The notes below the pieces were generated by a model that worked only from the letters and a program-made list of their open reading frames with translations, was not told where the DNA came from and searched no databases. This document shows positions 1 through 27,913 of a stretch of DNA of 60,276 nucleotides, piece by piece. The stretch covers positions 1 through 60,276 of the forward strand of contig JAVBPT010000007.1 of the NCBI GenBank assembly GCA_031549455.1, written 5' to 3'. The DNA comes from Eubacteriales bacterium (GTDB taxonomy: Bacteria; Bacillota; Clostridia; Lachnospirales; JAKSVV01). Both the position numbers and the translations under genes were made by a program. Numbering within the stretch: position 1 is the first letter of the stretch; each line of letters starts with the position of its first letter.

Positions 1-3000
1 GATATGATAAGAACATCAGACACAGTGTATTATTATGATTATACAGTAGTGGGAGGAAGCACAGGAACAGCAACAATTACAATTAGTGGAGGGCAAGATG
101 TTGCTGGGAATATAATGACAAATACCACCACCACTTTTGATACATTACTCACGGCGAGCATCTTTTTGGGGTATGAAGAAATGACCTATGGAGAGCAGAT
201 TGCGGTTGTGCAATTTTCTGGTCCTCCAACGGTTGAACCCAAGGTCAGCTTTAAGCAGGCAGGAACAAACCTTGGAAAGACATATGATTTTTCCGATGAA
301 GCAGTAAGGATGGGGACTGGAGATAATAGGAGTTATAGGACAACCATGCCAGGAGATGATAGTACCTATACTTGTATCTTCAATGTGATGAATGACAACA
401 ATGGAACTTATAAAGACGGAGTAGCCACAGTAACTGCTACAATTGGAAGCACCACGATGGCAATCTCTAACTTTAATGTAGTGACAGTGAAGCTCCCAAA
501 GATACCAGACGGATTTTATAAGAAGATCGAGGTAGGAACCAACACGGTAAGAGAAGGATATGTGATTACAGATAATCCAACAGGAGGAGATGGAGGCAAT
601 GAATTTGTCTTTATTCCGGCCAATGGATATGATAATGGAGGCTTTTGGATTGGACGTTTTGAGGCATCGGGAGAAGGAGAAGTAGGAAGCTATACTGGCA
701 AGGCACAAAGTAAGAGAGAAACTTGGGCATGGACAGGGGTCGGAGTGAATATGGCTGCGATAAGCCTTTATGCAACGGAGACTAGCGGTGAAGTAGAAGG
801 CAGACCTGTGACCGATATGGAATGGGATCTCATTTGTAAATTTTTATCGGAAGAAAAAGGGGACAACCTGATCTATACAGATAGTAGGAGTTGGAGTAAT
901 AACAGTTCTCAGGGGGTTAATTCGGCTGTTGTATCCGGAAGTAATGAGCAATGGAAAGCCAAAAACATATATGACCTGGCTGGAAATGCCGGAGAGTATA
1001 ACTATGCAGGGCTGAATTCATCTCCTTGGGGAAGAGGGGGTTCTTCGAGGTCCACCTCACTTTATGTTGCTTCAAGGAGCACAGGGAGTACTTATCAGAC
1101 AGGGTTTCGTATAGCATTATTTTATAAGCAGAACACTTCTAGCATTCCGGTGCCGAATGGTTACACACATATCGAGGGGGATATCAATACCGGATATGTG
1201 ATAAAGGACGATATGACTGGAGATGAGTTTATATGGATTCCCAATTCGGCGTATGAGAAAGGTGGCTTTTATATTGCAAGATATGAAGCCGGTTTGAGTG
1301 GTACCCGAAAAGGAACAAAGGCAGTCAGTAAGGCAGGTGCTCCGACATCTGGCATGAATTATTACGAAGCGATGATTTATGCCAATCGACTTGCGCGGGG
1401 GAAGGGGGATGTCTATAGTAGAATACCAAGTGATGCTGAATGGCAAAGCGTACTGAAATATATATTGAATGGGTATCCCGATGACGTACTCACATCTGGA
1501 ACGATGGGAAACAAAGTGTGGGCAAATAGTGTAACCCTAGGAAGATATAGTGTCGTTTATGGGACAGCTAACATAGGAGACACAGGAGACACGGGCTATG
1601 ATGTGAAGAATATTTATGACTTTTTTGGCAACTTAGCGGAATGGACACATGACTGGCAAAAAAGAGAAACCGGAGTCAATGTTTGGATGAGGGACGATAA
1701 TAAGGATACTTCATACAGGACACCGGCGTATAGAGGCAGTAAAGCCGCCGTCTCTAAAGAGGAGACGTATGGTTTTAGGCCGGTGCTTCTCTTTAAAGAA
1801 GAAGTGATGGCAGCTGAACCCCTAAGCATAGAAGCTATTTACATCGCATCCAGTAATAAAAATCCTGCTTATGCAAAACCGGGAGATACGGTGACGCTAA
1901 GCTTCAGGTTGAATAAAGAAATAGGGGGGACACCTTATGTAACAATGAATGAAACTCCTATTTCATTTGATAAAGAGGGGCTGACTTATACTGCCAGAAT
2001 CGTGATGGAAAGCGGTGACACGGATGGCGTAATACCATTTACAATAGAGGCGACGGATGGGGCGACGACAGTAAATAAAAGCGCAACGACCAATGGAAAA
2101 ACTGTGACCTTTGACAAGACATTACCATCGGTTACAAGTGTTGTGTATAGCCCTACAGGAACCTATACTGCGGGCACAAAAGTAACAATCACAGTGAATT
2201 TCAATAAAGAGATAGAGGAGGGTACGCCAAGAATTGAGTTTAGTGGCGCAGCATCCTTGAAAGCAAACTTGACGAAGCAAGATGCCAAGAAATATATTTA
2301 TGTATACACGATTCCAACAAAAGAGATTGTATCAGGGGTTGTAAGCGTAAAGGTTGCAAGTGCAAAAGATCTACTTGGCAATATTATAAATGATTATACT
2401 GCAAACTCTTTTACAATCACATCCACTGCAGAGTCCGCTTCTGGTATATTTTATCAGTATGATGAGATGACATTTGGGGACCAAAACATTTTGCTTCGAT
2501 TTGCAACTTCAAAGACAGCCCCTAATAAACCGGTGGTGTATATTACCCAACAAGGAACAGGGATGACTGAGGTGGTTAACTTTAATGACTCACCATTGCC
2601 AGATTTTGCGTATGCTGTGGATTCCAGCAATTATATGCTTAACTATAAGGTGAAGACCCATGGTTATGGGGGATATGAGGATGGGATTTGTACAGTGGTT
2701 GCGGTGGCAGGAACGGGAGGCGGAATAGAGGTTCTACGCTCAACCTTTACAATCAATACAAATACACTACCACCTTTACCAAGTGGGTATGTTGAGAGGA
2801 ATATACCTAACAATACGATTGTCAATGGGTATGTGATTACAGATCAACAAGATGGAGAGGGAGGAGGAAATGAGTTCGTTTGGGTTCCGGCGACGGAATA
2901 TAAAAACGGTGGCTTTTGGGCAGGCAGATATGAAGCATCCGGGACGGGGACTTACAGCACCTCAGGTAATCCAAGGTATACAGGAGAGGCGCAAAGCAAG

Positions 3001-4155
3001 CAAGGGTTTATGCCATGGGTTTGGCTAGTTACTGCAGACGCCAGAAAAAAAGTGGCAGAATTTAAAACGGATGATCCGGAGGTATACAGCCGGCTGATGA
3101 CGGATTATGAGTGGAAAAGAATTTGTAGGTTCATATCAGAAGAGAAGGGAGAATACAAAGTCTACGAGGATAGTAATACATGGGCGAACACAAGTAAAAC
3201 GGGGGGAGTAGTTACTGCTACTGGGAACAATGAGCACTGGAAAGCCAAAAATTTATACAACATTGGTGGAAATGTATCCGAATTAACGTATGCGGGCTAT
3301 AAAAGTAATACATTTTATACTGGCTCCACTGCAATCATGACGCTTAACTTACCAGCCGCTGCTAGTAACTCTTCTGTTAGTAGATCAGACACGGTGGGAT
3401 TTCGAATTGCTCTATTTTATAAGGAAGAAATGCAGAGTTCAAACTTACCAGACTTGTCAGGCACCGGACTGCACGCAAGGAGCATAACAGACAATGATCT
3501 GGAACACGGTTATGTGGTAACGGATAATGCAGCAGGTGGTGCAGGTGGTAATGAGTTTGTGTGGATACCCAATGAGACATATAAAGGAGGAGGATTCTTT
3601 ATCGGCCGATATGAGGGAATCGTTTCTGGGGAAGGGGCCATTACGAAACAGAATCAAACTCCGAGTACGTCTAATTATTATATCACTCAAAGGGGGTCAA
3701 TCGGTTATGCAAGGCAGCTATCTGGAAATGCAAAGCTAAAAGGATCCTTATTAACCGGAAAGATGTGGCAGGATGTATTAGTCTACTTGGCAGAGGGCTG
3801 GGTGGGAGACCCGAGTGACGGAAGTGCATTTAATAGTACAAAGTGGCCTGCCTCTGGAACGGGAAGTTTATCATATACGGTATGGCAGGACAGTACGTCC
3901 TGGGGGAACTATTCTGCTGCACGGGCGAATACAGGGTCAAATGAGGCTCGGAAGATAAAAAATATCTACGACTTTGCAGGAAACTTGGCTGAGTGGACCC
4001 ATGAAATAGGGTATGGCTTGACGGTATATGCAAGGGGAGGGAATTTTACGAGTTTATCATCCGGGATTTATCCGGCTTCGTATAGAGCAACCTCCCTGGG
4101 AGGGAAGAGTTCATATACCATTTCGGGTTTCCGCGTGGCGCTTACGTATAAATAA
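1..4155 (+). CDS. Large surface protein (5'-truncated at the window edge) with Ig-like domains and four FGE-sulfatase/C-type-lectin-like domains
   Basis: Frame is open from base 1. Four repeats of G(N/D)EF(V/I)(W/F)xP...GGF(W/Y/F)x(G/A)R(F/Y)E...NxY(D/N)xxGNxxE...GFR, separated by T/V-rich beta-strand Ig-like segments. Confidence 0.75.
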   Translation, partial: DMIRTSDTVYYYDYTVVGGSTGTATITISGGQDVAGNIMTNTTTTFDTLLTASIFLGYEEMTYGEQIAVVQFSGPPTVEPKVSFKQAGTNLGKTYDFSDEAVRMGTGDNRSYRTTMPGDDSTYTCIFNVMNDNNGTYKDGVATVTATIGSTTMAISNFNVVTVKLPKIPDGFYKKIEVGTNTVREGYVITDNPTGGDGGNEFVFIPANGYDNGGFWIGRFEASGEGEVGSYTGKAQSKRETWAWTGVGVNMAAISLYATETSGEVEGRPVTDMEWDLICKFLSEEKGDNLIYTDSRSWSNNSSQGVNSAVVSGSNEQWKAKNIYDLAGNAGEYNYAGLNSSPWGRGGSSRSTSLYVASRSTGSTYQTGFRIALFYKQNTSSIPVPNGYTHIEGDINTGYVIKDDMTGDEFIWIPNSAYEKGGFYIARYEAGLSGTRKGTKAVSKAGAPTSGMNYYEAMIYANRLARGKGDVYSRIPSDAEWQSVLKYILNGYPDDVLTSGTMGNKVWANSVTLGRYSVVYGTANIGDTGDTGYDVKNIYDFFGNLAEWTHDWQKRETGVNVWMRDDNKDTSYRTPAYRGSKAAVSKEETYGFRPVLLFKEEVMAAEPLSIEAIYIASSNKNPAYAKPGDTVTLSFRLNKEIGGTPYVTMNETPISFDKEGLTYTARIVMESGDTDGVIPFTIEATDGATTVNKSATTNGKTVTFDKTLPSVTSVVYSPTGTYTAGTKVTITVNFNKEIEEGTPRIEFSGAASLKANLTKQDAKKYIYVYTIPTKEIVSGVVSVKVASAKDLLGNIINDYTANSFTITSTAESASGIFYQYDEMTFGDQNILLRFATSKTAPNKPVVYITQQGTGMTEVVNFNDSPLPDFAYAVDSSNYMLNYKVKTHGYGGYEDGICTVVAVAGTGGGIEVLRSTFTINTNTLPPLPSGYVERNIPNNTIVNGYVITDQQDGEGGGNEFVWVPATEYKNGGFWAGRYEASGTGTYSTSGNPRYTGEAQSKQGFMPWVWLVTADARKKVAEFKTDDPEVYSRLMTDYEWKRICRFISEEKGEYKVYEDSNTWANTSKTGGVVTATGNNEHWKAKNLYNIGGNVSELTYAGYKSNTFYTGSTAIMTLNLPAAASNSSVSRSDTVGFRIALFYKEEMQSSNLPDLSGTGLHARSITDNDLEHGYVVTDNAAGGAGGNEFVWIPNETYKGGGFFIGRYEGIVSGEGAITKQNQTPSTSNYYITQRGSIGYARQLSGNAKLKGSLLTGKMWQDVLVYLAEGWVGDPSDGSAFNSTKWPASGTGSLSYTVWQDSTSWGNYSAARANTGSNEARKIKNIYDFAGNLAEWTHEIGYGLTVYARGGNFTSLSSGIYPASYRATSLGGKSSYTISGFRVALTYK

Positions 4156-4176
4156 TGTTATTTTTAAAATAAAGAC

Positions 4177-4204
4177 TTGAAAACTGGAAATCATAGATTA
4201 TAAT
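4177..4204 (+). promoter_or_regulatory. Putative sigma-A promoter for the lipoprotein gene
   Basis: TTGAAA (4177-4182), 16-nt spacer, TATAAT (4199-4204). Confidence 0.45.
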
Positions 4205-4229
4205 GCATTTAATAATATTGGAGGATTTC

Positions 4230-4895
4230 ATGAAATTTAGATTTTTCATTCTCTTTCTTTTACTTTGTATCGTATTGACAGGTTGCGGAAAAAAGGAAAC
4301 GTTTGTCTATACCAACAACTTTGATGAGGGACCGGGTCCAATGAGTTCTGGATTGATTGGCGTTCCGAAGGGTTCTCTAGCCAGTGACTATGCACTCACC
4401 TTTCGATATGAGAACACACCGGACATTTATAAAGAATCTCATATGGCGGTCTTTCTATCCATGGATAACATTACAGAGAATGCGTTTCAGTATCTCTCCA
4501 GCCATATCACGACCTCGGATGGTCTAGAAGCCAATACAGAGTATGACGTGGTGATGACATTTGATCTCATCACAAACATGGGTGAGGCAGGAAAAAATGT
4601 CTATCTAAAAGCCGGGATTGTGAATGGACAGGTGGTGGAAGATTATGAAGCCGACATCAAGGTTTTTAACCTTGATAAAGGGAATGGGAGAGAAGGAGGT
4701 TCTGACCTAAAACTGCTAGGAACGATTGAGGCGAAAGATCCAGGCAAGCATGAAATCAAGAAACAAAAGTATCAAACCACTTTGAAAACAGATGAGGGCG
4801 CCCGTTTAAGTTATCTAATCGGGGTGGATTCCACCTATAAAGGTGTGAGCTCTTTTTACATCAACAACATTGAAATCAAGTTTTATAAAAAATAG
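4230..4895 (+). CDS. Lipoprotein of unknown function
   Basis: GGAGG RBS before ATG 4230. MKFRFFILFLLLCIVLTGC has a lipobox (LTG-C) followed by a beta-rich domain. Confidence 0.7.
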   Translation: MKFRFFILFLLLCIVLTGCGKKETFVYTNNFDEGPGPMSSGLIGVPKGSLASDYALTFRYENTPDIYKESHMAVFLSMDNITENAFQYLSSHITTSDGLEANTEYDVVMTFDLITNMGEAGKNVYLKAGIVNGQVVEDYEADIKVFNLDKGNGREGGSDLKLLGTIEAKDPGKHEIKKQKYQTTLKTDEGARLSYLIGVDSTYKGVSSFYINNIEIKFYKK

Positions 4896-4897
4896 GC

Positions 4898-4926
4898 TTG
4901 ATCTTAGAGAAAATATAGTATACAAT
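4898..4926 (+). promoter_or_regulatory. Sigma-A promoter of the leuS T-box leader
   Basis: TTGATC (4898-4903), 17-nt spacer, TACAAT (4921-4926), just upstream of the T-box stem I. Confidence 0.6.
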
Positions 4927-4939
4927 AGGCACATAATGA

Positions 4940-5130
4940 GTAATGAAAAAAAGTAGTAAGTAGAATAAACTTTAAGAGAGTTGCTGTTTGGTGAAAAGCA
5001 ATAGGGAATATACCGAACTTGTTTTGGAGCTTTGTAGCAATACACGCGAGTAGCGTTAAAAGAATGAGTTTAAAGTAAGGTGGTAACACGATAAGTCGTC
5101 CTTTATGCAGCAATGCATGGGCGACTTTTT
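4940..5130 (+). ncRNA. T-box riboswitch (Leu specifier CUU) upstream of leuS
   Basis: AGTA, AGAGAG and GGTGAAA stem-I motifs; GAA-CTT specifier at 5015-5020; T-box AAGGTGGTAACACG at 5077-5090; terminator AAGTCGTCC...GGGCGACTTTTT at 5093-5130. Confidence 0.9.
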
Positions 5131-5153
5131 AAATCCAAAATTTGAGGTGAAAA

Positions 5154-7559
5154 ATGAAAGAGTATGATTTTAGACAGGCAGAAAAAAAGTGGCAGAAAGA
5201 ATGGGAAAGACAAAATGTTTTTCACGCGGAAGATTTTTCAAAAAAGGAAAAATTTTATGGTTTGATTGAGTTCCCTTACCCCTCCGGGTCCGGGCTTCAT
5301 ATCGGACACATCAGAGCATACACTCCGCTTGAAGTTATTTCAAGAAAAAAGAGGCTCGAAGGGAGGAATGTTCTCTTTCCAATCGGTTGGGATGCATTTG
5401 GCCTTCCAACAGAAAACTATGCGATTAAAACAGGCATCCATCCCAGAAAGGTGACGGATGAAAACATCAAGATTTTTACAGAACAACTGAGGTCGATTGG
5501 CTATTCATTCGACTGGTCTCGGGAGCTTGATACTTCTGGCGAAGAGTACTATAAATGGACGCAGTGGATCTTTCTAAAGCTGTATGAAAAAGGTCTTGCT
5601 TATAAAGACCACACCTATGTAAACTTTTGTCCGGAGTGTAGAGTGGTACTCTCCAATGAAGAGTCACAAGGGGGTAAGTGCGACCGATGTGACAGCGACG
5701 TGGTACAAAAGGAAAAAGAGGTCTGGATGCTAAAGATTACGGACTATGCGGAGAAATTATTAGAAGGACTGGATGAGGTAAATTATATTCCAATGGTTCG
5801 CGTGTCGCAGGAGAACTGGATTGGGAAAAGTGCTGGGGCGGAGGTGAACTTTAAGCTGGAAGGGGAAGACACTAACCTTCGGGTGTTTACCACCAGGCCT
5901 GATACGCTGTTTGGAGCCACCTTTATGGTTATTGCGCCAGAGCATCCCATGATTGAACAGTTTAAAAACAGAATTCAAAACCTGACTGAGGTGGAACAGT
6001 ATAGAGAGCAAGCTAAAAAGAAAACGGAGTTTGAAAGGGTGGAACTGGCCAAAGAGAAAACAGGAATCGAGATAAAAGGAATCAAAGCAATAAATCCTGT
6101 GACCCAAGGAGAGATGCCGATCTGGGTAGCGGACTATGTGATGATGGGCTATGGAACCGGAGCCATTATGGCAGTTCCGGCACACGATACACGTGACTTT
6201 GAGTTTGCAACCAAATTTGATATTCCCATTGTACAGGTGATTCAAAAGGCTGGAGAGGAAGAGACGACGCTTCCATTTACAGAAGACGGCATCATGATCC
6301 ATTCGGATTTTCTAAATGGGATGGATGTCAAAAAGTCAAAAGAGGAAATGATCCAATATCTTGAAAAACAAAAGATGGGCACCCGAAAGATCAACTATAA
6401 GATGAAGGACTGGGCGTTCGCACGACAACGATATTGGGGAGAACCCGTGCCGATTATTCACTGCCCAGTCTGTGGAATGGTCGCTGTACCAGAAAAGGAC
6501 TTGCCCGTTACCCTTCCGGATGTGAAAAATTTTAAGCCGGGTGTGGACGGAGAGTCACCCCTTGCAGATATCCATGAATGGGTCAATGTAAAATGCCCAA
6601 AGTGTGGAATGGATGCAAAACGAGAAACCGACACCATGCCGCAGTGGGCAGGCTCTTCATGGTATTTCTTAAGATACATCGATCCACATAATCACGAAGA
6701 GTTGGGAGATAAAAAGAAACTCGACTACTGGATGAATGTGGATTGGTATAGTGGAGGAATGGAGCATGTGACAAGACACTTGATTTATTCTAGATTTTGG
6801 CATCGCTTCCTATATGATATCGGAGTGGTCAGTACACGTGAGCCCTACGCCAAAAGAACCGCGCATGGTTTGCTTCTGGGATCCGATGGAGAAAAAATGA
6901 GTAAGTCAAGAGGCAATGTGGTGAATCCGAATGAAATGGTAGAGACCTACGGGGCGGATGCATTCAGGCTTGCGATGTTATTCGTGGGAGACTATGAGAA
7001 TGCCATTGTATGGTCGGAGGACACCATAAGGGGAGCAAAAAGATTTTTGGAGCGAACCTTTAAGCTACTTGATCTAGTTGCTGAGGGAAAGGGGTACTCA
7101 AAAGAGTTAGAGGCCCCTATTCATAAAACCATCAAGGGTGTGTCAGAAGATTTAGAAAATGCAAAGTTTAACACCGCGATTGCAAAATTGATGACACTTA
7201 TTAATACGTTCTATGATCATAAAAAGATAACAAGAGAAGATCTTCTTACTTTTATCACACTCTTAAATCCAATCGCACCTCATATCACAGAGGAGATGTG
7301 GCAGGAGATGAACGGGAAGGGACTACTCGCATTGGGCACATGGCCAAGCTATGACCCAGCGAAACTTATTGAAAAAGAGATTGAAATTCCCATTCAGGTG
7401 AATGGGAAAGTGAAGGCGAAGATTGTGATCGCTATAGATGAGACGGAAGAAAGTGTACTTGAAAAGGCAAGAGAAAGTTTAAAAGGGATGGTGGATGTAA
7501 AGGAGATCGTCAAGCAGATTTATGTTCAAGGAAAGATCGTCAATATTGTAGCCAAATAG
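5154..7559 (+). CDS. leuS: Leucine--tRNA ligase
   Basis: FPYPSGSGLHIGH (HIGH), GWDAFGLP, FTTRPDT editing domain, RQRYWG, KMSKS; Leu T-box upstream. Confidence 0.97.
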   Translation: MKEYDFRQAEKKWQKEWERQNVFHAEDFSKKEKFYGLIEFPYPSGSGLHIGHIRAYTPLEVISRKKRLEGRNVLFPIGWDAFGLPTENYAIKTGIHPRKVTDENIKIFTEQLRSIGYSFDWSRELDTSGEEYYKWTQWIFLKLYEKGLAYKDHTYVNFCPECRVVLSNEESQGGKCDRCDSDVVQKEKEVWMLKITDYAEKLLEGLDEVNYIPMVRVSQENWIGKSAGAEVNFKLEGEDTNLRVFTTRPDTLFGATFMVIAPEHPMIEQFKNRIQNLTEVEQYREQAKKKTEFERVELAKEKTGIEIKGIKAINPVTQGEMPIWVADYVMMGYGTGAIMAVPAHDTRDFEFATKFDIPIVQVIQKAGEEETTLPFTEDGIMIHSDFLNGMDVKKSKEEMIQYLEKQKMGTRKINYKMKDWAFARQRYWGEPVPIIHCPVCGMVAVPEKDLPVTLPDVKNFKPGVDGESPLADIHEWVNVKCPKCGMDAKRETDTMPQWAGSSWYFLRYIDPHNHEELGDKKKLDYWMNVDWYSGGMEHVTRHLIYSRFWHRFLYDIGVVSTREPYAKRTAHGLLLGSDGEKMSKSRGNVVNPNEMVETYGADAFRLAMLFVGDYENAIVWSEDTIRGAKRFLERTFKLLDLVAEGKGYSKELEAPIHKTIKGVSEDLENAKFNTAIAKLMTLINTFYDHKKITREDLLTFITLLNPIAPHITEEMWQEMNGKGLLALGTWPSYDPAKLIEKEIEIPIQVNGKVKAKIVIAIDETEESVLEKARESLKGMVDVKEIVKQIYVQGKIVNIVAK

Positions 7560-7567
7560 GAGGGGAA

Positions 7568-7966
7568 ATGACAAATCAAGCACTTTTTGAAATCGCCAAA
7601 GAGGCGAGAAATTATGCAAGGTCTGGATACTGCCATTACAAAGTTGGGACAGCTCTGCTTTGTAAAAATGGGAAAGTATATAAGGGATGTAACATCGAAG
7701 CAAGAGATATTCCGAGCAATTCAAGCTGTGCAGAGAGATCTGCTTTTATTAGTGCTATCTCAAATGGGGAGACGGAGTTTGAAAAAATTATGGTGATTGG
7801 GGGTCCGGAAGATGGTGACTTAATCATGACTACCCCATGTGGTGTTTGTAGACAATACATTCTGGAAATGAACCCGGAGATGTTGGTTGTGATAAGTGAC
7901 GGGAATGCATATCAAGAATACATTGCAAAAGAGCTTTTACCCAGTACATATTATTTAAAAAACTAG
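7568..7966 (+). CDS. cdd: Cytidine deaminase (tetrameric type)
   Basis: GCNIE, CAERSA and PCGVCRQ zinc motifs; 132 aa. Confidence 0.85.
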   Translation: MTNQALFEIAKEARNYARSGYCHYKVGTALLCKNGKVYKGCNIEARDIPSNSSCAERSAFISAISNGETEFEKIMVIGGPEDGDLIMTTPCGVCRQYILEMNPEMLVVISDGNAYQEYIAKELLPSTYYLKN

Positions 7967-8033
7967 AAAAATTTATTTTCCACAAAAGTATTCCATATAG
8001 TCATATCTTGTCTTAAAATACAAAGTGGAGATT

Positions 8034-8070
8034 AAAAAGCCTGTAAGCATAAGTATTGACGGGCTTTTTT
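8034..8070 (+). terminator. Intrinsic terminator after leuS-cdd
   Basis: AAAAAGCCTGT...ACGGGCTTTTTT stem with U-tract. Confidence 0.7.
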
Positions 8071-8217
8071 GATGTTTTTTTTTTGTCAAAAATGGTTGTA
8101 TTTGTGAGTTGTTATGCTAAACTGTAATCAAAATTAAAAAAACATTTTTGCTATATATAAAAAATAAATTGTGACGAATAAAACTAGGTAAACAAAATAT
8201 TTTATTTGGAGGAGTGA

Positions 8218-9036
8218 ATGCTTTTTAACATCGCTACTGTTGGATTCAGTAAATTAGAAGATTCGAATAAACGTTTTACAGTGATCAATGATGTCATTAA
8301 TAACTACACCAAGATGGAGTACTATGACACGGATACTGAAAAAAAATACGTTGAAAATAAAAAGCAATATGGCAAAAATATTGGAATTATTGTGAGAGGT
8401 TTGCAACAAAATGATAAGATGACGGTCACAAACATTGTGCCTTATGCGGAGACAGCGAAGAAGATCAACGTGAAGGATGTAAGAATAGAGAGGGCAGAGT
8501 TAGAACTCCTTGCCAAACCAGTTGTGGAGAATGAGTATCACGTGACCATCACGGATATTCTCACCAACATGAAAATTACTTTCTATCTTCAAAATGTAAT
8601 TGACTATTTAAAAAACAATCAAAGAGTGCGATCCACTTTTAATCAGGTCAGCATCTCTGCTCTTGCCTACTCGGGCAAGATTGTGCTTCCAATCGCTTCA
8701 GAAGAAGAGGAATACGAGGAGATGTCGGGTGAGTATTGTTCGGCGGATGATGAGGTTGTGGATCGGATTTTAAAAGAAGGAACGATTCTAGAGGATATGG
8801 AACAATATTTTATACAGTCTCAGAAGATTGACGCGATTTATCACATTTTGGGGAAAATAATAGATGTAAAGAAAACCAATAACATCGAAACCAAGGAGAA
8901 GATCTATCTACTAGAAGTGGATGTGATGGGCATGAGTCTTGAGGTGTATGTAAATGAAAAGGAACTTGTGGGGATGCCAATTAAGGGAATGAGATTTATG
9001 GGGACTTGTTGGTTACAGGGAAGCATTCAGTTTTAA
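8218..9036 (+). CDS. DUF3881-family protein
   Basis: N-terminal ATVGFS, internal FYLQNVIDY and SALAYSGKIVLP, C-terminal G.P..G.RF.G..WLQG match my recollection of this clostridial family; GGAGG RBS. Confidence 0.7.
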   Translation: MLFNIATVGFSKLEDSNKRFTVINDVINNYTKMEYYDTDTEKKYVENKKQYGKNIGIIVRGLQQNDKMTVTNIVPYAETAKKINVKDVRIERAELELLAKPVVENEYHVTITDILTNMKITFYLQNVIDYLKNNQRVRSTFNQVSISALAYSGKIVLPIASEEEEYEEMSGEYCSADDEVVDRILKEGTILEDMEQYFIQSQKIDAIYHILGKIIDVKKTNNIETKEKIYLLEVDVMGMSLEVYVNEKELVGMPIKGMRFMGTCWLQGSIQF

Positions 9037-9051
9037 AATAAGAAAAACGAG

Positions 9052-9094
9052 AATACTTTCAATATTGAGTAGATCAATGTCGAAAGTATTTTTT
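9052..9094 (+). terminator. Intrinsic terminator-like hairpin
   Basis: AATACTTTCAATATTGA / TCAATGTCGAAAGTATT arms followed by a T-tract. Confidence 0.6.
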
Positions 9095-9159
9095 GCGATG
9101 GATATTTACTTTTTTAAAAAAACCATTATAATTTTATCTAAGATGGTGGAGAAAAAAGA

Positions 9160-12100
9160 ATGAAAAAAATTTTAGCAATATTGACGTTTGGCGTCTTGTT
9201 TATATATATTTTAAGAATGAATGTGACAGCGAGTGAGAATAAGATTGTTCGAGTGAGGAATCTGCAAATCACAAACCCCGGAGTTGTATATATCCCGGGA
9301 GAAAAGGTCAAGATTGACCTCTCTTTTAGTGATGCGATACAGGTAGACAATTATACCTTATTAAAACTAACACTGGAGCTCGGACTCAATAAGGACAGAC
9401 AAGCCACTTGTAAAGGGGTGAGTGGGAACACGATCCGTTTTGAATATACGATTCAAGATGGGGATGATGCTTTAAGCATCAAACATAGAAGAGATGCACT
9501 GAAATTAAATGGTGCGGTTATTACGGCTGTGGATGGAACCGTAAACGGGGCAACCCCAGCCTGGTATGAGCCTGGAGCGATTGTGTCTCGAGAGATTCGG
9601 GATGGGGTAAAAATCATCAAGGTGGATGACGCACAGGTCACGACATCAGAAATCGAAGGAGAGAATCAAACACCTGTATTGATCCTTGGAAATCTAAAAA
9701 GAGGAGAAAAGGTAACCATCCGTGTCAACGATGAGGAACTAAGCGATCAAGTGATGCCTCATCCGACCGTTGAGACGAGTCTGCCAAGGGTGGAATGGGC
9801 AATCCCTTTCACAGAAGAGTTTTTGTTGGGGGACAATGAAATAACAGGCGCGGTGACAACAGTAGACGGGAAGACGTTTGCAATAGAACCATTTACATAT
9901 ACGTATATAGACGTGAATGCACCGGAGATTGTATCCGTTGTGATATCGGACTATCCGAATGAGGAAGAATTTATAGAGGGAGAAAAGGCAACCATCACGG
10001 TTACCTTTAATGAAAAAATCAAGGGAGGAACCCCTAAGATCAGTTTTGGGGGCGTATTAACGTTAGCCAAAACAACAATGGTCAAAGTGAGTGATACGGT
10101 ATATCAATACGAGTATACGATTCCAAACACGGTAAAAGGAGAGGTAAAGGTCACCATCACCGGTGCAGAGGATTTGGCGGGCAATGTGATGGAGGATGCG
10201 GAGGAGATTAAAACATTTAAGGTGGCACCACTTGAGATTGATATTTACCTTACCTGGGAGGAAGCCACAGTGGGTGAGCAACAAATCTATGTGGAATTTA
10301 ATCGACCCATGAGTGAAGAGGTCGTGATTTCGGTCAAACAACAAGGAAGCGCCTTGACGGATGCCGTCAATTTCAACAACACCCTTCCGGACTTCGCTTA
10401 TAAGACGGACAATAAGGATCAGTATTTTAGAATCTGCCGGATCTGCTCGGATGGTTATCAGGGAAATGAGGACGGTGATGCGACTGTAAGCGTTCTTTTA
10501 AATGGAGTAAAGGCAGCAGAGAAAAGCTTTTTGGTGACAACCGGGACGCTACCAACTATTCCGACAGGGTACTATTATAAAGGCGGGAATATGTCGGAAG
10601 GCTATATCATTAGTGATATAGAGAATGATCAAGAGGATAAAGGCAACCAATTTGTTTGGATTCCGGCAAACGGATATAAGAATGGCGGTTTTTGGATTGG
10701 ACGATATGAGGCCTCTGGAACAGGAGCCTATAATGATACAACAGGTGCCTATGCAGGGGATGCACAAAGTAAGAAGGGATATATGCCATGGGTGGGAATC
10801 ACGCCCAATAGTGCAAGGCAGAAGACATCCAACTTCATTCCCGGAAACAATCCAGAGGTATATAGCAGGTCGGTCACAGATGAAGAGTGGGTTTTGATAT
10901 TTAAATATATTGCGCAAGAGAAGAATCTTACGAAATTTAAAAATGCCTCTTTTTTACGAGAGGTGGGCAATTATCAAGATAGTGTCATTCCGGGTACAAG
11001 TACAGCGGCTCCGGGAAGAGGGGAGAGACAAGTATCAGGGTTTCATGACTATTGGCAGCTCATGAATATTTATGATCTGGTTGGGAATGTGAATGAACAG
11101 ATGTATTCAGGTTCCACAGATTACGTGCTTACGCGGGGAGGACATTTTAAGCAATCGGCAGCTGGATTTCCACCACTTGCTGGGACGAGTCCAAGCGCGA
11201 CCACATCGGCGGACTGGAGAGGTTTTCGAATAGCGATGTTCTATAAGGAAAGCGTACAAATGACTCCAAGTCTGGGGGGAGAACTATTTGAGCGAAGTGG
11301 AGTGGGATCGAATACTGTGGCAGAAGGATATGTGGTAACAGATGAACCAAGTGGACTAGCAGGAGGAAATGAGTTTGTTTGGGCGCCAAGCGAGGGCAGC
11401 CCAAATGGGGGATTCTTTGTGGGAAGGTTTGAGGCGAGTGCAGAGGGGGAAGGACATAAGAAGACAGCCACAAGTAAACATGGCGTGGATGTAGCGGTGA
11501 ATGTAAGCTATTATGATGCCTCCATGGTAAGTTTTAAGTATGCCAAGGAAAGTGACCTCTTCACAAGTAGATTACTCACGGAGAAAAACTGGCAGGATAT
11601 ATTAGAACTTATGGCTGGGAAAGATGGGGATAATAAGTGGTACAATGACGTCAATGTAAGAGGAAGTGAACGGTATACTGTGTGGCAGGATGGGACAACC
11701 TGGGGGAATTATACCAATAGTGTGGCGCCTGCGAACATTTTGGGAGTAGGCGTGGAACAAGTGACAGGATACAGTGGCCTGGAAGGAAGAGGAGATGTTT
11801 GGTCCAAGAAACACATTCATGATCTTGCAGGAAATATGTTTGAGTGGATCCATTCGACAAGGACAGACTTTTCAGCGGATGGAATGGCACTGAAGGGTGG
11901 TGTTGTTGCTATAGAACTAGAGGATGCAAGCTATGCATCTTCTTCCCGCTCTGTCACTGCTACCGCAAAAATACCGTTAATCGGTTTCCGGTATGGATTA
12001 TTTTATAAGCCCGAGAGGTCAACGGATGTAACAAAACCAACCGTGAGCAAGATAGAGCTTTCAAAGTCGATTGAGGAATTGGGGTATACGAAGGGAGAAG

Positions 12101-14463
12101 AGATCACCATTCTTGTAACCTTTAGTGAGCCACTCAAAAATGGCACACCAAGGATCTCTTTTGATGGAGACGTCGTCTTATCCAAAACAGACATGGTAAA
12201 AACAGCCACCAATCAATACAAGTTTACGTATACCGTTCCAAATTATGATGGGGGAACGGTGGAGATCAATATAACTGACGCGGAGGATCAGGCAGGAAAT
12301 GTGATGAACGATGCGAATGCAATTAAAACCTTCGAGATGCTTCCGCTAGAGACGGACATCTATTTTACCTGGGATGAGGCCACAGTAGGAGAACAACAAA
12401 TATTTGTGGAGTTTAATCAAGCAGTCTTAGATGAAGTGGTTATTTCTACAAAGCAACAAGGAAGTGTGCTAGAAGAAGCGATTAACTTTAATTATATTTC
12501 ATCACTCGGCTATACTTCCAAAGAGGATAACAATTATCAGTACTTTAGGAACTATAGAATTCGTTCGGATGGGTATCAGGGGAATGAAGATGGAGAGGCA
12601 AAGGTAAAAGTGGTCGTAGATGGGAAAGTGGTAGCAGAGAAAAGTTTTATGGTTATAACCGGAATCTTACCTCCGATCCCAACAGGATATTATTATAGAG
12701 AGGGAAGCATGTCAGAGGGGTATGTCATCAGTGACATAGAGGATGACAAAAATAACGAAGGTAACCAATTCGTTTGGGTTCCGGCAAATGGATATAAGAA
12801 TGGAGGTTTCTGGATTGGGCGGTATGAGGCCTCTGGAACAGGAGCCTATAATTCGGGCACGGGGACTTATGCAGGGGATGCACAAAGTAAGAAGGGATAT
12901 ATGCCATGGACCAAAATTAGCCCCAATTCGGCCATTCAAAAGGCTGATGCTTTTATTACGAATGGAGAAGTGTATAGCAGACTGGTTACTATGCAGGAAT
13001 GGTATTTAATTTACAAGTATATTGCACAGGAGAAGACGCTCAATTGGTTTAACTCATCTCTTTCGAAGACAATAGGAAATTATAAAGATAGCGTCATTCC
13101 GGGTACAAGTACGCCGGTTCCGGGAAGAGGCGTAAAGCAGGTAGCGGGCTTTAGTGACTACTGGAAACAGATGAATATTTATGATCTGACAGGCAGTGTG
13201 AATGAGATAACTTATTTTGGACATCAGCAGTACATTACAATTTATGGTGGAAATTATCAGGAAAATGCGGCAGATTTTTCACCACTTGGTTTTAATAATC
13301 TACTTGCCACCTCGGCACAAGACTGGACAGGATTTAGATTGGCCATGTTTTATAAAGAAGAGGCCACTGCTCCACCGTATTTGGCGGGGGTAGATCTAAG
13401 AGAAAGACAAGAAATTACATCAAATACGCCAACAGGTGGATATGTGGTAACAGATGAACCAAGTGGACTAGCAGGAGGAAATGAGTTTGTTTGGATTCCC
13501 AATGAGGGTTATTTAAATGGAGGCTTCTTTGTGGGAAGGTTTGAGGCGAGCACAGATGGCGCTGGGCGCAATATAGTGGCGGAAAGTAAACAGGGCGCAA
13601 ACCTTGTTACGGACATCAACTATTTTGGTTCAGCTATGTTAAGCTTTAAGGTTCTAAAAGATGAAGACCTCTTTACAAGTAGATTGCTTACGGAAAAGAA
13701 TTGGCAGGATGTACTAGAATTTATAGCAGGGAGAAGAGCGAATAACACATGGTATACAGATGTCACCGCCACGACTAGTGAACGCTATAAAGTCTGGCAG
13801 AATGGGACCACATGGGGAAACTATATAGGAAACGAGGTTCCGGCTAATATCGCTGGAAGCGGAGAGATGCAGGTGGCCGGATATAGCGGTCTAGAAGGAA
13901 GAGGGGATGTGTGGTCTAAAAAGCATATCCATGATCTTGCAGGAAACGGATCAGAATGGTTACACTTTCCGGCTTCAAACTATGTAAATGGTCCTTCCTA
14001 TATTGCGGGATATTATTTTTCTGGGTCATCGGAGTCAGGAAAAAAGGCAACTGCCACGGCGGCGGTGCCTGCGAAAACGGGAATAACGAACTATTTAACT
14101 TTCCGTTACGCCTTATTTTATAAACCGCGAGCAGTAATCGATACCACAAAACCGATCGTGACCAAAGTGGAACTCTCTAAGCCGGCTATTGGGCCAGAGT
14201 ATGCAGCGGGGGAAGAGATTACCATCTTGGTAACCTTTAGTGAGCCACTAAAGAATGATACGCCAAAGATCTCCCTTGACGGACCTATTAGTACGGTGAA
14301 AACGGATATGGTGAAGACGGCCACCAACCAGTACAAATATACCTTCCCTCTCCCAAACAGCAGCGGAGGTATGGTAAATGTAAGCATAACGGATGCAAGC
14401 GATTTTTCGGGAAACATTATGCTGGATGCAGAAAATGTAATAAGCTTTAGCGTTATATCGTAA
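9160..14463 (+). CDS. Secreted 1767-aa surface protein with Ig-like domains and four FGE-sulfatase/C-type-lectin-like domains; paralog of 1..4155
   Basis: Signal peptide MKKILAILTFGVLFIYIL. Two tandem ~700-aa modules [Ig-Ig-CLecA-CLecB] plus a terminal Ig, with the same GN(E/Q)FVW, GGFxxGRxE, DLxGxxxE and FR motifs. Confidence 0.78.
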   Translation: MKKILAILTFGVLFIYILRMNVTASENKIVRVRNLQITNPGVVYIPGEKVKIDLSFSDAIQVDNYTLLKLTLELGLNKDRQATCKGVSGNTIRFEYTIQDGDDALSIKHRRDALKLNGAVITAVDGTVNGATPAWYEPGAIVSREIRDGVKIIKVDDAQVTTSEIEGENQTPVLILGNLKRGEKVTIRVNDEELSDQVMPHPTVETSLPRVEWAIPFTEEFLLGDNEITGAVTTVDGKTFAIEPFTYTYIDVNAPEIVSVVISDYPNEEEFIEGEKATITVTFNEKIKGGTPKISFGGVLTLAKTTMVKVSDTVYQYEYTIPNTVKGEVKVTITGAEDLAGNVMEDAEEIKTFKVAPLEIDIYLTWEEATVGEQQIYVEFNRPMSEEVVISVKQQGSALTDAVNFNNTLPDFAYKTDNKDQYFRICRICSDGYQGNEDGDATVSVLLNGVKAAEKSFLVTTGTLPTIPTGYYYKGGNMSEGYIISDIENDQEDKGNQFVWIPANGYKNGGFWIGRYEASGTGAYNDTTGAYAGDAQSKKGYMPWVGITPNSARQKTSNFIPGNNPEVYSRSVTDEEWVLIFKYIAQEKNLTKFKNASFLREVGNYQDSVIPGTSTAAPGRGERQVSGFHDYWQLMNIYDLVGNVNEQMYSGSTDYVLTRGGHFKQSAAGFPPLAGTSPSATTSADWRGFRIAMFYKESVQMTPSLGGELFERSGVGSNTVAEGYVVTDEPSGLAGGNEFVWAPSEGSPNGGFFVGRFEASAEGEGHKKTATSKHGVDVAVNVSYYDASMVSFKYAKESDLFTSRLLTEKNWQDILELMAGKDGDNKWYNDVNVRGSERYTVWQDGTTWGNYTNSVAPANILGVGVEQVTGYSGLEGRGDVWSKKHIHDLAGNMFEWIHSTRTDFSADGMALKGGVVAIELEDASYASSSRSVTATAKIPLIGFRYGLFYKPERSTDVTKPTVSKIELSKSIEELGYTKGEEITILVTFSEPLKNGTPRISFDGDVVLSKTDMVKTATNQYKFTYTVPNYDGGTVEINITDAEDQAGNVMNDANAIKTFEMLPLETDIYFTWDEATVGEQQIFVEFNQAVLDEVVISTKQQGSVLEEAINFNYISSLGYTSKEDNNYQYFRNYRIRSDGYQGNEDGEAKVKVVVDGKVVAEKSFMVITGILPPIPTGYYYREGSMSEGYVISDIEDDKNNEGNQFVWVPANGYKNGGFWIGRYEASGTGAYNSGTGTYAGDAQSKKGYMPWTKISPNSAIQKADAFITNGEVYSRLVTMQEWYLIYKYIAQEKTLNWFNSSLSKTIGNYKDSVIPGTSTPVPGRGVKQVAGFSDYWKQMNIYDLTGSVNEITYFGHQQYITIYGGNYQENAADFSPLGFNNLLATSAQDWTGFRLAMFYKEEATAPPYLAGVDLRERQEITSNTPTGGYVVTDEPSGLAGGNEFVWIPNEGYLNGGFFVGRFEASTDGAGRNIVAESKQGANLVTDINYFGSAMLSFKVLKDEDLFTSRLLTEKNWQDVLEFIAGRRANNTWYTDVTATTSERYKVWQNGTTWGNYIGNEVPANIAGSGEMQVAGYSGLEGRGDVWSKKHIHDLAGNGSEWLHFPASNYVNGPSYIAGYYFSGSSESGKKATATAAVPAKTGITNYLTFRYALFYKPRAVIDTTKPIVTKVELSKPAIGPEYAAGEEITILVTFSEPLKNDTPKISLDGPISTVKTDMVKTATNQYKYTFPLPNSSGGMVNVSITDASDFSGNIMLDAENVISFSVIS
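9950..14450 (+). repeat. Internal tandem duplication of about 2.1 kb within the 9160 gene
   Basis: Identical tracts 11326-11382 = 13438-13494 (57 nt, offset 2112) and 10750-10791 = 12868-12909 (42 nt, offset 2118); repeated protein motifs. Boundaries are approximate. Confidence 0.85.
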
Positions 14464-14521
14464 TCAAATAAAGACATAAAAAATGCACCTTCGAGTGCAT
14501 TTTTTATGTCTTTATTTGATT
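14462..14521. terminator. Bidirectional terminator: perfect 27-bp inverted repeat with 6-nt loop
   Basis: AATCAAATAAAGACATAAAAAATGCAC-CTTCGA-GTGCATTTTTTATGTCTTTATTTGATT between convergent genes. Confidence 0.85.
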
Positions 14522-25921: not shown

Positions 25922-26606
25922 AATGCTTTGCGATCTAGGGATCAATGGATTAAAAATTGAACAAGAAGAGGGTCTATTCCTGGTTGGAACAGACTCTGTT
26001 TTATTATCAGACTTCGTTCGAGCCAAAAAGGGGGCGAGTATAATAGATCTCGGAACAGGGACGGGGGTGCTTCCCATTCTTTTATCAGCTAAGACGGAGG
26101 CCCGTATTATTTATGGGATTGATATTGTGCCGGAAGCAGTGGCACTGGCCAAACGAAACGTGGAGAAAAATCAGCTCGAAGATAGGATTCTGATTGAAAG
26201 GGTGGATATCAAAGAGGCCCACCGTCATTACACCTCTTTCTTTGATGTGGTGGTGACCAATCCACCGTATATGCTGCCGAGTGAGAATAGCAAAAATCAG
26301 AAGATGCAGTGTGTTAATCAGGAGGAAAATTTAAGAATTGCAAGACATGAGATCTTGTGCACGATTGAGGATATCTTAAAGACAAGCAGTAGGCTTCTCG
26401 GGACGAAAGGGAAGTTTTATATCGTTTATAGACCGGAACGCCTCGCCACTCTTTTTTATTTGATGAAAAAGCATAGTATTGAGCCCAAACGAATGAAAAT
26501 GGTGTACCCATTTAAAAGTAGGGAGGCCAACATGGTGTTAGTGGAGGGTGTAAAAGACGGGAAAGAGGGTCTTAAGGTAGAGCCTATTCTCTGTATCAAT
26601 GGATGA
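25911..26606 (+). CDS. tRNA1(Val) (adenine37-N6)-methyltransferase (YabB/TrmN6 family)
   Basis: DSVLLSDF, DLGTGTG, NPPY, IARHE; conserved position after ricT. Confidence 0.88.
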   Translation: MSNKMLCDLGINGLKIEQEEGLFLVGTDSVLLSDFVRAKKGASIIDLGTGTGVLPILLSAKTEARIIYGIDIVPEAVALAKRNVEKNQLEDRILIERVDIKEAHRHYTSFFDVVVTNPPYMLPSENSKNQKMQCVNQEENLRIARHEILCTIEDILKTSSRLLGTKGKFYIVYRPERLATLFYLMKKHSIEPKRMKMVYPFKSREANMVLVEGVKDGKEGLKVEPILCING

Positions 26607-26620
26607 ATCGGGATGAGTAT

Positions 26621-26652
26621 AAAAAGAGGGCACATATGAGTGCTCTCTTTTA
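26621..26652. terminator. Terminator-like hairpin
   Basis: AAAAAGAGGGCAC-ATATGA-GTGCTCTCTTTT. Confidence 0.6.
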
Positions 26653-26681
26653 CATATATATGTATCAAAAAGGATTTCTAA

Positions 26682-27224
26682 ATGAGCGTTTGGGTCTATG
26701 AAAAGAATGGAAAAGTGGTTTCTAGGGTGTCTGATGCATGGGAAGATACGATTCTTGATGGGATCGAGACCGCAGTCGGAGAAGAGGGGGTGGTTCCTGA
26801 GAGAGACAAAAGAGAAGGAGATAAAAAAACACCCCGTGGGGTATACTGGATTGATAAGACATTTGGATGGGGGGAGCTTCCGGAAGGGAGAGATTTCCTG
26901 ATTCAGGGGATAGAGCACCTTAAGGTATCCGGACCGGATGAGTATTTTTGGGTGGATGATTCGGAGAGTGCGCTCTATAACCAGATTTATACAGGAAAGG
27001 ACGCCCCCTTTTCTTCGGCAGAAGATTTGTATCAGCCTGGCTATCGGTATGCACTTGTTCTAAGCTATAATAAGGAGAGGGCCCCGTATAGAGGGTCCGC
27101 AATCTTCGTCCATGTGTTAGAGCCTGGGAAGACTAGCACTCTGGGGTGTATTGCCTATCCGGAGGATGTATTCCTATTGATTGTCGCATATCTAGATATT
27201 CAATCCGTATTTAAAATTATGTAA
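26682..27224 (+). CDS. L,D-transpeptidase (YkuD) family protein
   Basis: KREGDKKTP.G.Y, WVDD..S..YN, GSAIFVH...TLGCIA with catalytic His and Cys. Confidence 0.82.
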   Translation: MSVWVYEKNGKVVSRVSDAWEDTILDGIETAVGEEGVVPERDKREGDKKTPRGVYWIDKTFGWGELPEGRDFLIQGIEHLKVSGPDEYFWVDDSESALYNQIYTGKDAPFSSAEDLYQPGYRYALVLSYNKERAPYRGSAIFVHVLEPGKTSTLGCIAYPEDVFLLIVAYLDIQSVFKIM

Positions 27225-27269
27225 ACAAAAAGACCTTCTAGGGTTGGTAGAAAGCCTTTGACTTTTCTC

Positions 27270-27560
27270 TTATAAATTTGTTTTTACATTCCCATCATCA
27301 TCAACATGTAGTCCGGCAAGTTTTGCCATGTCCACAATTGCTTCTTTGGAAATCTTGCTTCCTTTATAGTTGATTAGATTGTCCATATTGTTTGTAAATA
27401 GACAGCCCGCATTATATTTTTGTAATACGATTCTACCTGTATCATCAACAAAGATCTCAAGTGAATCTTTGATGTCGATATTTAGGTTCCTTCTAAGTTC
27501 TATTGGCAAAACAATCCGTCCAAGTTCGTCTACCTTTCTAACAATTCCTGTTGATTTCAT
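27270..27560 (-). CDS. abrB: AbrB-family transition-state regulator
   Basis: MKSTGIVRKVDELGRIVLPIELRR; AGGAGGGG RBS before ATG 27560. Confidence 0.88.
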   Translation of the reverse strand: MKSTGIVRKVDELGRIVLPIELRRNLNIDIKDSLEIFVDDTGRIVLQKYNAGCLFTNNMDNLINYKGSKISKEAIVDMAKLAGLHVDDDGNVKTNL

Positions 27561-27913
27561 AATCAAACCCCTCCTAAATAAATTTTAAATTCTCTTATCG
27601 CTTAATACAAACCTATATTATCATAGTAATTTTTCAATGTCAACTAAATAGTAAAAATTCTTTAAATATTACAAATATAGTAAGAAACTTCTAGAATATG
27701 GGTAAAATGGCTGACATTACGGATTCAAATAAGTTTTAAAATAAGTGGATAAACTCATTTTTTTGTGCTATCATTTTTAAGTAGATTCAAAATTTGAATT
27801 TAGAAAAAAGAGAGAAGCGGTTCACGCTTTCGTAGACTTTTGTCATCTACTATAATTAGTAGGATACTTTACAAATTTTAAAAAAATGTTATCATAATAG
27901 AAAAGGAAAACAT

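Follow-up and report, generated by a model that had tools for sequence, protein, structure and literature searches.

Eight FGE-like domains in two giant paralogous proteins of a Clostridia genome without a detectable diversity-generating retroelement

Two giant genes built from one repeated module

The window analysed here is the whole of a 60,276-bp contig (C38) from a Clostridia genome assembly (G000; 1.48 Mb, 74 contigs, 98.3% complete). It carries two giant paralogous open reading frames (ORFs), gene 1 and gene 2, whose products as read contain eight homologous domains related to formylglycine-generating enzyme (FGE). Lectin heads of the FGE type, which belong to the C-type lectin (CLec) fold, are known mainly as a scaffold that is rewritten by diversity-generating retroelements (DGRs). 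We detected no DGR in this genome, and the eight domains probably form a fixed, multiplied array on surface-exposed or secreted proteins, the variety of which arose by duplication and divergence.

Each protein contains, as read, two copies of a module that consists of an immunoglobulin (Ig)-like domain, a domain that we term X and two FGE-like domains, A and B, the latter being joined without a linker. The first module of gene 1 starts with the end of an Ig-like domain, and two Ig-like spacers separate it from the second X. The features of both genes are as follows:

1..4155, + strand: gene 1 (P0001), 1384 aa read, 5' end cut by the contig end, stop codon at 4153-4155
139..492, + strand: gene 1 X copy 1, aa 47-164, motif YEEMTYGEQ
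493..1134, + strand: gene 1 A1, FGE-type lectin-fold domain, aa 165-378
1135..1803, + strand: gene 1 B1, aa 379-601, the sole domain of the eight that exceeds the Pfam FGE-sulfatase cut-off
1804..2424, + strand: gene 1 spacer, aa 602-808, roughly two Ig-like domains long, family matches weak and sub-threshold
2425..2772, + strand: gene 1 X copy 2, aa 809-924, motif YDEMTFGDQ
2773..3429, + strand: gene 1 A2, aa 925-1143
3430..4152, + strand: gene 1 B2, aa 1144-1384, directly followed by the stop codon
9160..14463, + strand: gene 2 (P0002), complete, 1767 aa
9160..9231, + strand: gene 2 signal-peptide-like hydrophobic N-terminus, aa 1-24 (...NVTA/SE), judged by eye from the sequence
9232..9921, + strand: gene 2 N-terminal part, aa 25-254, which may lie near the cell or anchor the protein
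9922..10221, + strand: gene 2 Ig-like domain, aa 255-354, Big_12-like, below cut-off
10222..10536, + strand: gene 2 X copy 1, aa 355-459, motif WEEATVGEQ
10537..11253, + strand: gene 2 A1, aa 460-698, the modelled domain
11254..12015, + strand: gene 2 B1, aa 699-952, no linker to A1, PF03781 at 19.1 bits, below cut-off
12016..12339, + strand: gene 2 Ig-like spacer, aa 953-1060, Big_5 at E = 0.039 only
12340..12654, + strand: gene 2 X copy 2, aa 1061-1165, motif WDEATVGEQ
12655..13362, + strand: gene 2 A2, aa 1166-1401, 67% identical to A1
13363..14130, + strand: gene 2 B2, aa 1402-1657, 56% identical to B1, with insertions and deletions relative to B1 at the tip
14131..14460, + strand: gene 2 C-terminal Ig-like domain, aa 1658-1767, resembling the first Ig-like domain of the modules

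A motif search of both ORFs finds the four motifs of the FGE-like domains four times each per protein and in register, and the scaffold GNEFVWIP, GGFxxGRxE, NIYDxxGNxxE and GFR is kept in each domain. The motif (Y/W)(E/D)E(M/A)TxG(E/D)Q, in turn, occurs twice per protein, immediately 5' of each A domain. A preliminary description of this DNA, made from the sequence alone, had reported two giant paralogous ORFs at these positions and the same motifs in the same order, and both points hold. Its count of four domains per gene is correct for gene 2 and a lower bound for gene 1, the 5' end of which is cut. Seven of the eight domains are internal to the ORFs, and only gene 1 B2 reaches the ORF end.

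In an alignment the eight domains, which measure 214-256 aa, share 22 invariant columns and a pairwise identity of 26-67%, and no residue outside the scaffold motifs is common to all of them. Identity is 42-67% between A domains, 26-56% between B domains and 26-39% between A and B domains. Moreover, a single A domain compared with a B domain by BLASTP gives E = 2e-21 over the full length. Together with the alignment this value indicates that the repeat structure reflects real homology rather than chance. The identities suggest an order of events, in which the A/B split came first and duplication of the [Ig-X-A-B] module and of the gene came later, the internal duplication in gene 2 (A1/A2 67%, B1/B2 56%) being the most recent event. 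The two modules of gene 2 are 58% identical overall and 70-93% identical in the scaffold blocks. At the C-terminal tips that correspond to the variable repeat (VR) of DGR targets, identity is 43-47% in A and 23-48% in B, and the B tip has 12 gap columns. Divergence of the duplicates, as read from the sequences, peaks at these tips and fits duplication followed by divergence.

The remainder of the module is less well matched by known families. For the first Ig-like domain, Big_12 scores 22.8 bits against a Pfam cut-off of 27, Big_5 is likewise sub-threshold, and the NCBIfam 'tandem large repeat' model is matched at E = 1.3e-12, far below the family cut-off. Its homologues carry PF19078, and the Atlas gives a lead of 0.90 to Big_12 clusters. 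The X domain (~105 aa) has no Pfam match and no usable Atlas match. A hidden Markov model (HMM) of X found no match outside this genome among 171 collected proteins and the ORFs of 77 related loci, and when residues 255-462 of gene 2 were searched against a 5.8-billion-protein set (proteins of 971-3093 aa), only the Ig half was matched. X precedes every A domain, and a further copy lies at the end of contig C50. Thus, of the two consecutive Ig-like domains that had been proposed at the start of the module, the first finds weak support, while the 'Ig' label of the second, motif-bearing domain is unverified, since this domain has no match anywhere.

The N-termini of gene 2 and of a paralogue on C50 are both hydrophobic and signal-peptide-like, judged from the sequence. 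No wall anchor (LPXTG, SLH, CWB or LysM) is found in either giant protein by Pfam, and NCBIfam reports no anchor family either.

Fold of the domains and the missing cysteine pair

When the domains were scanned singly, two of the eight matched Pfam FGE-sulfatase (PF03781) at E<=1 and one, gene 1 B1, exceeded the cut-off, with 29 bits in the Pfam scan and 32.2 bits in a genome search. One domain, gene 2 A1, was modelled with AlphaFold2 from a 40-sequence alignment (mean predicted local distance difference test, pLDDT, 95.1; predicted template modelling score, pTM, 0.92). A Foldseek search of the PDB with this model returns 44 matches at E<=0.001; every one of those listed has the FGE fold. Realignment with VIA gives Z scores of 13-17 over 155-190 aa. 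The rows are given below with Z score and, for the first two, root-mean-square deviation (rmsd); rows within 1 Z are to be read as tied:

TvpA: Z 16.9, rmsd 3.2, 184 aa
TaqVP: Z 16.8, rmsd 2.9, 190 aa
PvdO: Z 15.8
CalU17: Z 15.1
CarF: Z 14.9
PorK: Z 14.4 (14.2-14.4 over 182-189 aa)
pFGE: Z 14.0
FGE: Z about 13.8
Mtd: Z 13.6

On this model, the A domain is securely assigned to the FGE-type CLec fold, as the preliminary description had supposed from motifs, and not to another fold. DGR variable proteins head the structural ranking of the modelled domain, if only narrowly. The A1-B1 tandem of gene 2, modelled from a 16-sequence alignment, has a pLDDT of 79.6 and a pTM of 0.83. The tandem model ranks structures as the A1 model does, and every listed match falls on the A half. 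Sequence searches of the PDB with profiles of all eight domains and of the four B domains gave weak matches only (TvpA at E = 0.055 and 0.06, respectively; SUMF2 at E = 0.15).

Six of the eight domains contain no cysteine and two contain a single one, in the central helix; the C-terminal half is free of cysteine in all eight. We take the copper-binding catalytic cysteine pair of FGE to sit in the C-terminal half, in agreement with the C336S and C341S PDB entries that were matched. The absence of an FGE cysteine motif, already suspected in the preliminary description, is thus confirmed for all eight domains, and judging from these sequences the A and B domains are not FGE-type enzymes. The genome has a single match to the Sulfatase family, an 824-aa frame that may be LtaS-like.

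Relatives, paralogues and the search for a DGR

An eight-domain profile was searched against 1.84 billion representative proteins and gave 4627 matches at E<=1e-3, 2078 at E<=1e-10 and 40 at E<=1e-30. The top matches are giant proteins, namely P0016 (6477 aa, 10 domains), P0018 (5309 aa, 10 domains) and P0017 (3424 aa, 9 domains), and the identity of the top relatives to the window proteins is about 25%. Among 169 collected proteins with a profile match, a set pooled from several searches that includes both window proteins and cluster duplicates, 70 have at least two domains. Pfam finds FGE-sulfatase in 11 of 18 top matches and, across the 18, also the extracellular modules Flg_new, fn3, dockerin (in one homologue), GBS_Bsp-like, Laminin_G_3 and DUF285. 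A cluster look-up of ten top homologues returned none with a name. The rarity implied by the preliminary description was therefore overstated: multi-domain arrays are common among unannotated metagenome proteins, and a DGR target with three tandem FGE domains has been published (PMC5758913).

Among 636 candidate stretches from species-representative genomes, 365 code for a relative. We kept 77 loci, almost all from metagenome-assembled genomes (MAGs) of uncultured gut Clostridia. The usual form at these loci is a protein of ~400 aa with one C-terminal domain; the domain is single in 98 of 100 ORFs and final in 85 of 100. Most single-domain relatives have, in the alignment, a pilin-like hydrophobic N-terminus (…KGITLIALVITIIVLLILAG…), apparently without the usual Glu at +5 (P0063, P0077, P0079, P0110, P0122, P0131 and others). 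The giant genes were found in G000 but in none of the other 40 genomes searched, of which one (G001, 69% complete) belongs to the same family and 39 to the same order. G001 and one further genome (G017) each gave a single weak domain-level match, and neither match is an orthologue.

Within the genome, the profile was searched against the six-frame ORFs of 60 aa or more, 6154 in total. This genome-wide count, which the preliminary description had called for, recovers the eight domains and one distant copy on contig C68 (E = 4.7e-10). The latter belongs to a 582-aa frame (C68:32659-34404, - strand) that has an N-terminal membrane helix and a C-terminal FGE-like domain ending at the stop codon, and its N-terminal region shares 27-29% identity with the start of gene 2. 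Moreover, the start of a further paralogue lies at the end of C50, where a signal-peptide-like N-terminus and 61-64% identity with residues 2-259 of gene 2 are found before the frame runs off the contig. We take the ORF upstream of this paralogue, read from its C-terminal residues only, to be a candidate rplQ. Positions 1-297 of C50 overlap window positions 1-297 at 89% DNA identity. The 33 mismatches are spread throughout, 25 of them at third codon positions, and change 9 of 99 amino acids, which by sequence marks the overlap as a diverged allele (strain) or a paralogue and not as a simple join. The four domains counted in gene 1 are therefore a lower bound. The overlap is also the exact point at which the assembly and the Logan contigs both break. 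Elsewhere on C50, at ~27.5-38 kb (- strand), a 3504-aa open frame carries Ig-like repeats with 27-34% identity to the stalk encoded by the two giant genes and would encode another giant surface protein; locus L088 covers 26161-29520.

The loci of relatives provided a positive control for the DGR search. A screen for A-biased repeats flagged three of the 77, two of which are true DGRs; the third (L065), a 52-bp palindromic self-match, was taken as noise. At L024 the template repeat (TR) and VR match over 124 bp with 18 of 20 mismatches at A, and the VR lies on the last codons of an FGE-like ORF. At L025 they match over 120 bp with 11 of 13 mismatches at A, and the VR lies at the ORF end. The two loci contain:

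L024, 1-2721 (short contig): target, MutS_I-like ORF, RVT_1 split in two ORFs (1549-2157 and 2132-2563), TR
L025, 751-5240 (contig of a rabbit-gut Clostridia MAG): target (N_methyl + FGE-sulfatase), bAvd, RVT_1, TR at 3582-3701, SSB-like ORF, phage-type integrase

The window-domain profile matches the two targets at E = 1.4e-31 (L024) and E = 1.5e-18 (L025). Recovery of these loci shows that the screen works and that the domain family truly includes DGR targets, which bears out the proposal that this scaffold is one that DGRs diversify. The reverse transcriptase (RT) of L025, a short RVT_1 ORF of 219 aa, looks truncated.

In the window genome, across all 74 contigs, neither RVT_1 nor bAvd has a match. 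The genome was also compared with itself by blastn (816 high-scoring segment pairs) and screened for repeats with at least 75% of the mismatches on A or T of one copy; no such pair involves an FGE-like domain. The sole A-biased pair, 62 bp long and shared by C52 and C68, has 12 of its 15 mismatches at A; the FGE-like gene on C68 is 27 kb away, and the pair was attributed to chance. Finally, blastn of window positions 1-14463 against the genome returned only paralogous coding matches and the C50 overlap, and no template repeat. The impression that no DGR is visible thus extends from the window to the assembled genome, in the search for an RT as well as in that for copies differing at adenines.

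The tips themselves were then compared. Targets of one TR must share the non-adenine positions of that TR. Over their last 180 nt the eight domains share 46-60% pairwise identity, a level that is near random for coding DNA, and one common template is therefore impossible. The real VRs of L024 and L025 stand out in composition, with GC 0.50-0.51 versus 0.33-0.34 in the rest of the ORF and A 0.18-0.20 versus 0.43-0.44. In the window, GC is 0.37-0.53 in the tips versus 0.43-0.47 in the rest, and A is 0.24-0.33 versus 0.30-0.34; the C68 tip shows no VR-like shift. Moreover, DGR homing keeps length constant, unlike ordinary divergence, and the insertions and deletions between duplicate tips therefore favour the latter. 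The preliminary description had left it open whether the domains are DGR-independent or served in trans. The sequence evidence favours the first option, whereas nothing in the assembled genome supports service in trans, be it an RT, Avd, an A-biased repeat, shared tip DNA or a composition imprint, and the tip indels speak against it as well.

The only DNA run with the locus is X1, an invertebrate gut metagenome that is possibly the source of the assembly. Its contigs list no differences from the window inside any domain; they omit rare variants, on which the comparison is silent, and leave window positions 11689-12662 uncovered. No RNA run was listed for the locus. An RNA library of the same study (run X2) yields identical contigs over 4288-4540, 8223-8609 and 9373-9571, which were not used as evidence of expression because DNA carry-over is possible.

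Genes 1 and 2 are separated by a lipoprotein-like ORF, leuS, the cytidine deaminase gene cdd and a DUF3881 gene, and mgtE lies downstream of gene 2 in convergent orientation. The lipoprotein-like ORF (4203-4895, + strand) encodes 230 aa with a lipoprotein signal (…LTGC), starts 48 nt past gene 1, with a strong promoter-like site before it (4177-4204), and has no Pfam or NCBIfam match. Two further sites, both consensus matches only, flank gene 2:

9105..9132, + strand: promoter-like site TTTACT-16-TATAAT, 28 nt 5' of the gene 2 start
14469..14514, no strand assigned: hairpin with a 20-bp stem, terminator-like on both strands, between gene 2 and convergent mgtE

Interpretation and comparison with known systems

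We consider it probable that genes 1 and 2 encode large Sec-exported surface or secreted proteins that act as multivalent, multi-specific binders, and that their variety was fixed by duplication and divergence rather than by a DGR. The proteins would be exported via the Sec-type leader. Their conserved N-terminal region, which the paralogues share at 61-64% identity and which can also be recognised in the C68 protein, would lie near the cell and may serve as the anchor. Ig-like and X domains would form a stalk that presents the A-B pairs, and each head would combine the common CLec scaffold with a tip of its own, at the C-terminal stretch that is the ligand-binding surface in TvpA, TaqVP and Mtd. 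One cell could in this way display at least nine different binding surfaces, gaining both avidity and breadth without hypermutation, and duplication of domains, modules and genes followed by divergence would have fixed the variety in the genome. Because a dockerin is found in one homologue and the habitat is the gut, polysaccharides, a host surface or cell-cell contacts in the invertebrate gut are plausible ligands. These genes take up ~12 kb of a 1.48-Mb genome, an investment suggesting a central place for attachment or ligand capture in the organism's life in an invertebrate gut.

Several points weigh against this interpretation. The absence of an anchor leaves retention at the surface unexplained, and the binding role, be it adhesion or glycan recognition, is putative. 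The fold of B is predicted from its homology to A, the Pfam matches and a weak match of the four-B-domain profile to TvpA (E = 0.06), and in the tandem model residues 363-414, an insert in B, have a pLDDT <50. Non-binding uses of the fold, structural in PorK and enzymatic in PvdO and CalU17, score only 1-2.5 Z lower than the best matches of the modelled domain. In addition, the gene 2 A1 tip shows a modest shift of +0.10 GC and -0.09 A that is faintly VR-like, and a phage- or plasmid-borne DGR could have been missed by a 74-contig assembly.

The alternative that survives best overlaps in part with the interpretation we favour. It regards the heads, still binders, as fossil DGR targets that were once hypermutated and whose tips were frozen upon loss of the DGR and then drifted. 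In its favour, the same family is a live target at L024 and L025, DGR variable proteins lead the structural ranking, divergence within the domains is greatest at the tips, and the tips of gene 2 A1 and gene 1 A1 are slightly richer in GC and poorer in A. However, six of the eight tips and the C68 tip lack a composition shift, tip lengths differ between duplicates, the tips have no common DNA similarity, and seven of eight domains are internal whereas the domain is final in 85 of 100 related ORFs. We therefore regard a fossil origin as unlikely.

Slightly less likely still is a structural role in the envelope, in which FGE-fold domains would serve as surface-layer or scaffold blocks, like PorK and GldK in the type IX secretion ring. 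The giant proteins are lineage-specific, with any match at all in only two of 40 related genomes and no orthologue, and the tips of the paralogues diverged fast, unlike conserved envelope machinery. This tells against a role that the PorK match, the housekeeping neighbours (leuS and cdd between the genes and the candidate rplQ upstream on C50) and the rigid A-B unit suggested by the pTM of the tandem model would otherwise accommodate.

We hold it to be very improbable that a DGR still acts on the heads in trans, its RT, Avd and TR being located on a phage or plasmid missing from the assembly or in a contig gap. The assembly is in 74 contigs with gene 1 broken at a contig end, remote targets are possible, and all three tandem FGE domains of the published target are apparently diversified (PMC5758913). 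Against this stand the failure to find an RT, Avd or TR in a 98.3%-complete genome, tips too dissimilar to be compatible with one TR, indels between duplicate tips, and the absence of a composition jump of the size seen in the positive control. Equally remote is the idea of extracellular enzymes with another FGE-fold chemistry, like that of PvdO, CalU17, ToxD or the EgtB/OvoA sulfoxide synthases: PvdO and CalU17 lie <2 Z from the top match and NCBIfam ovoA_Nterm is weakly matched (E = 6e-4, 18.8 bits versus a cut-off of 400), but the cysteine pair is missing, no residue outside the scaffold motifs is conserved in all eight domains, the DinB-type iron domain that sulfoxide synthases need is not found here by Pfam, and eight diverged copies on an Ig stalk form an adhesin-like layout, unlike that of an enzyme.

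The interpretation as fixed multivalent binders invites a more speculative extension, which we consider possible but doubtful. A gut Clostridia lineage with a reduced genome (1.48 Mb) may have swapped the hypermutation of a DGR-type lectin head for a hard-wired repertoire of at least nine heads on three or four genes, with A-B pairs as rigid two-headed units and an X domain before each. If so, it would provide a natural case of 'germline' versus 'somatic' diversification of one binding fold, and a composite binding site in the A-B pair, should it exist, would make the architecture new among adhesins. More generally, the array and the DGR targets form a natural pair for comparing how binding diversity arises, by duplication plus divergence or by targeted hypermutation.

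Among known systems, FGE-sulfatase/CLec1 is the largest class of DGR targets (71 of 372; Wu et al. 2018, PMC5758913), and the same paper notes remote targets as well as the target with three tandem domains. The window domains share the fold of TvpA (Treponema denticola, 2Y3C), TaqVP (Thermus aquaticus, 5VF4) and the 'category b / CLec1' targets. TvpA and TaqVP are the best structural matches of the modelled domain, and a non-catalytic character and a variable C-terminal tip are further points in common; TvpA is reported to lack FGE activity (PMC5758913). Unlike these proteins, however, the window domains occur in a genome in which no RT, Avd or TR was found, and seven of the eight are internal. 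Their tips vary in length and share no common DNA, and variety is spread over eight or nine fixed copies instead of one site. FGE/SUMF1 and pFGE/SUMF2 also have the same fold (Z 13.8-14.0), and PF03781 is matched by one or two of the window domains, which differ from these proteins by the absence of the copper-binding cysteine pair in all eight and by their presumed extracellular multi-copy layout.

The pilin-leader single-domain proteins of Clostridia, which were found with the window-domain profile, belong to the same family and share the motifs IPxGF, GNEFVWIP, GGFYIxRYEAG, NIYDLAGNVxEW and GFRxALY. They are proteins of ~400 aa with a pilin-like helix and one C-terminal domain, whereas the window proteins have four domains, an Ig stalk and a Sec-type leader, and an insert of 40-60 aa (N-terminal hairpin/core) that is present in many of these relatives is absent from the window domains. 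Closer in layout are the giant multi-FGE proteins from metagenomes (P0016, P0018, P0017), which likewise have domain arrays, partly in direct tandem, and metagenome relatives with fewer copies pair the domain with Gram-positive surface modules. The X domain, in contrast, is carried by none of the proteins searched, and the strict A-B alternation within [Ig-X-A-B] is seen only in the window proteins. Arrays of up to 10 heads recur in many metagenome proteins that lack annotation, which points to Gram-positive surface binders as a large class still to be described.

Fibrillar adhesins, as described by Monzon and Bateman (PMC8286594, PMC9210967), resemble the window proteins in being long, which in the latter are predicted to be extracellular and to have putative Ig-like stalk repeats and putative adhesive domains. 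In the window proteins, however, the putative adhesive domains are spread along the stalk rather than placed at one tip, and no anchor domain is found. The main text of the fibrillar-adhesin papers searched does not mention 'FGE-sulfatase', and in the literature searched, subscription journals and supplements aside, we found no description of multi-FGE-domain surface proteins as adhesins, save for the tandem three-domain DGR target (PMC5758913). Neither the fold nor its non-catalytic use nor its occurrence in tandem is thus new. What differs here is that the eight heads, all but one of them internal, form strict A-B hetero-tandems, that a lineage-specific X domain stands before each pair, and that no DGR is detectable. 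The window proteins are a clear example of an architecture that is undescribed, though apparently widespread, and not of a new mechanism.

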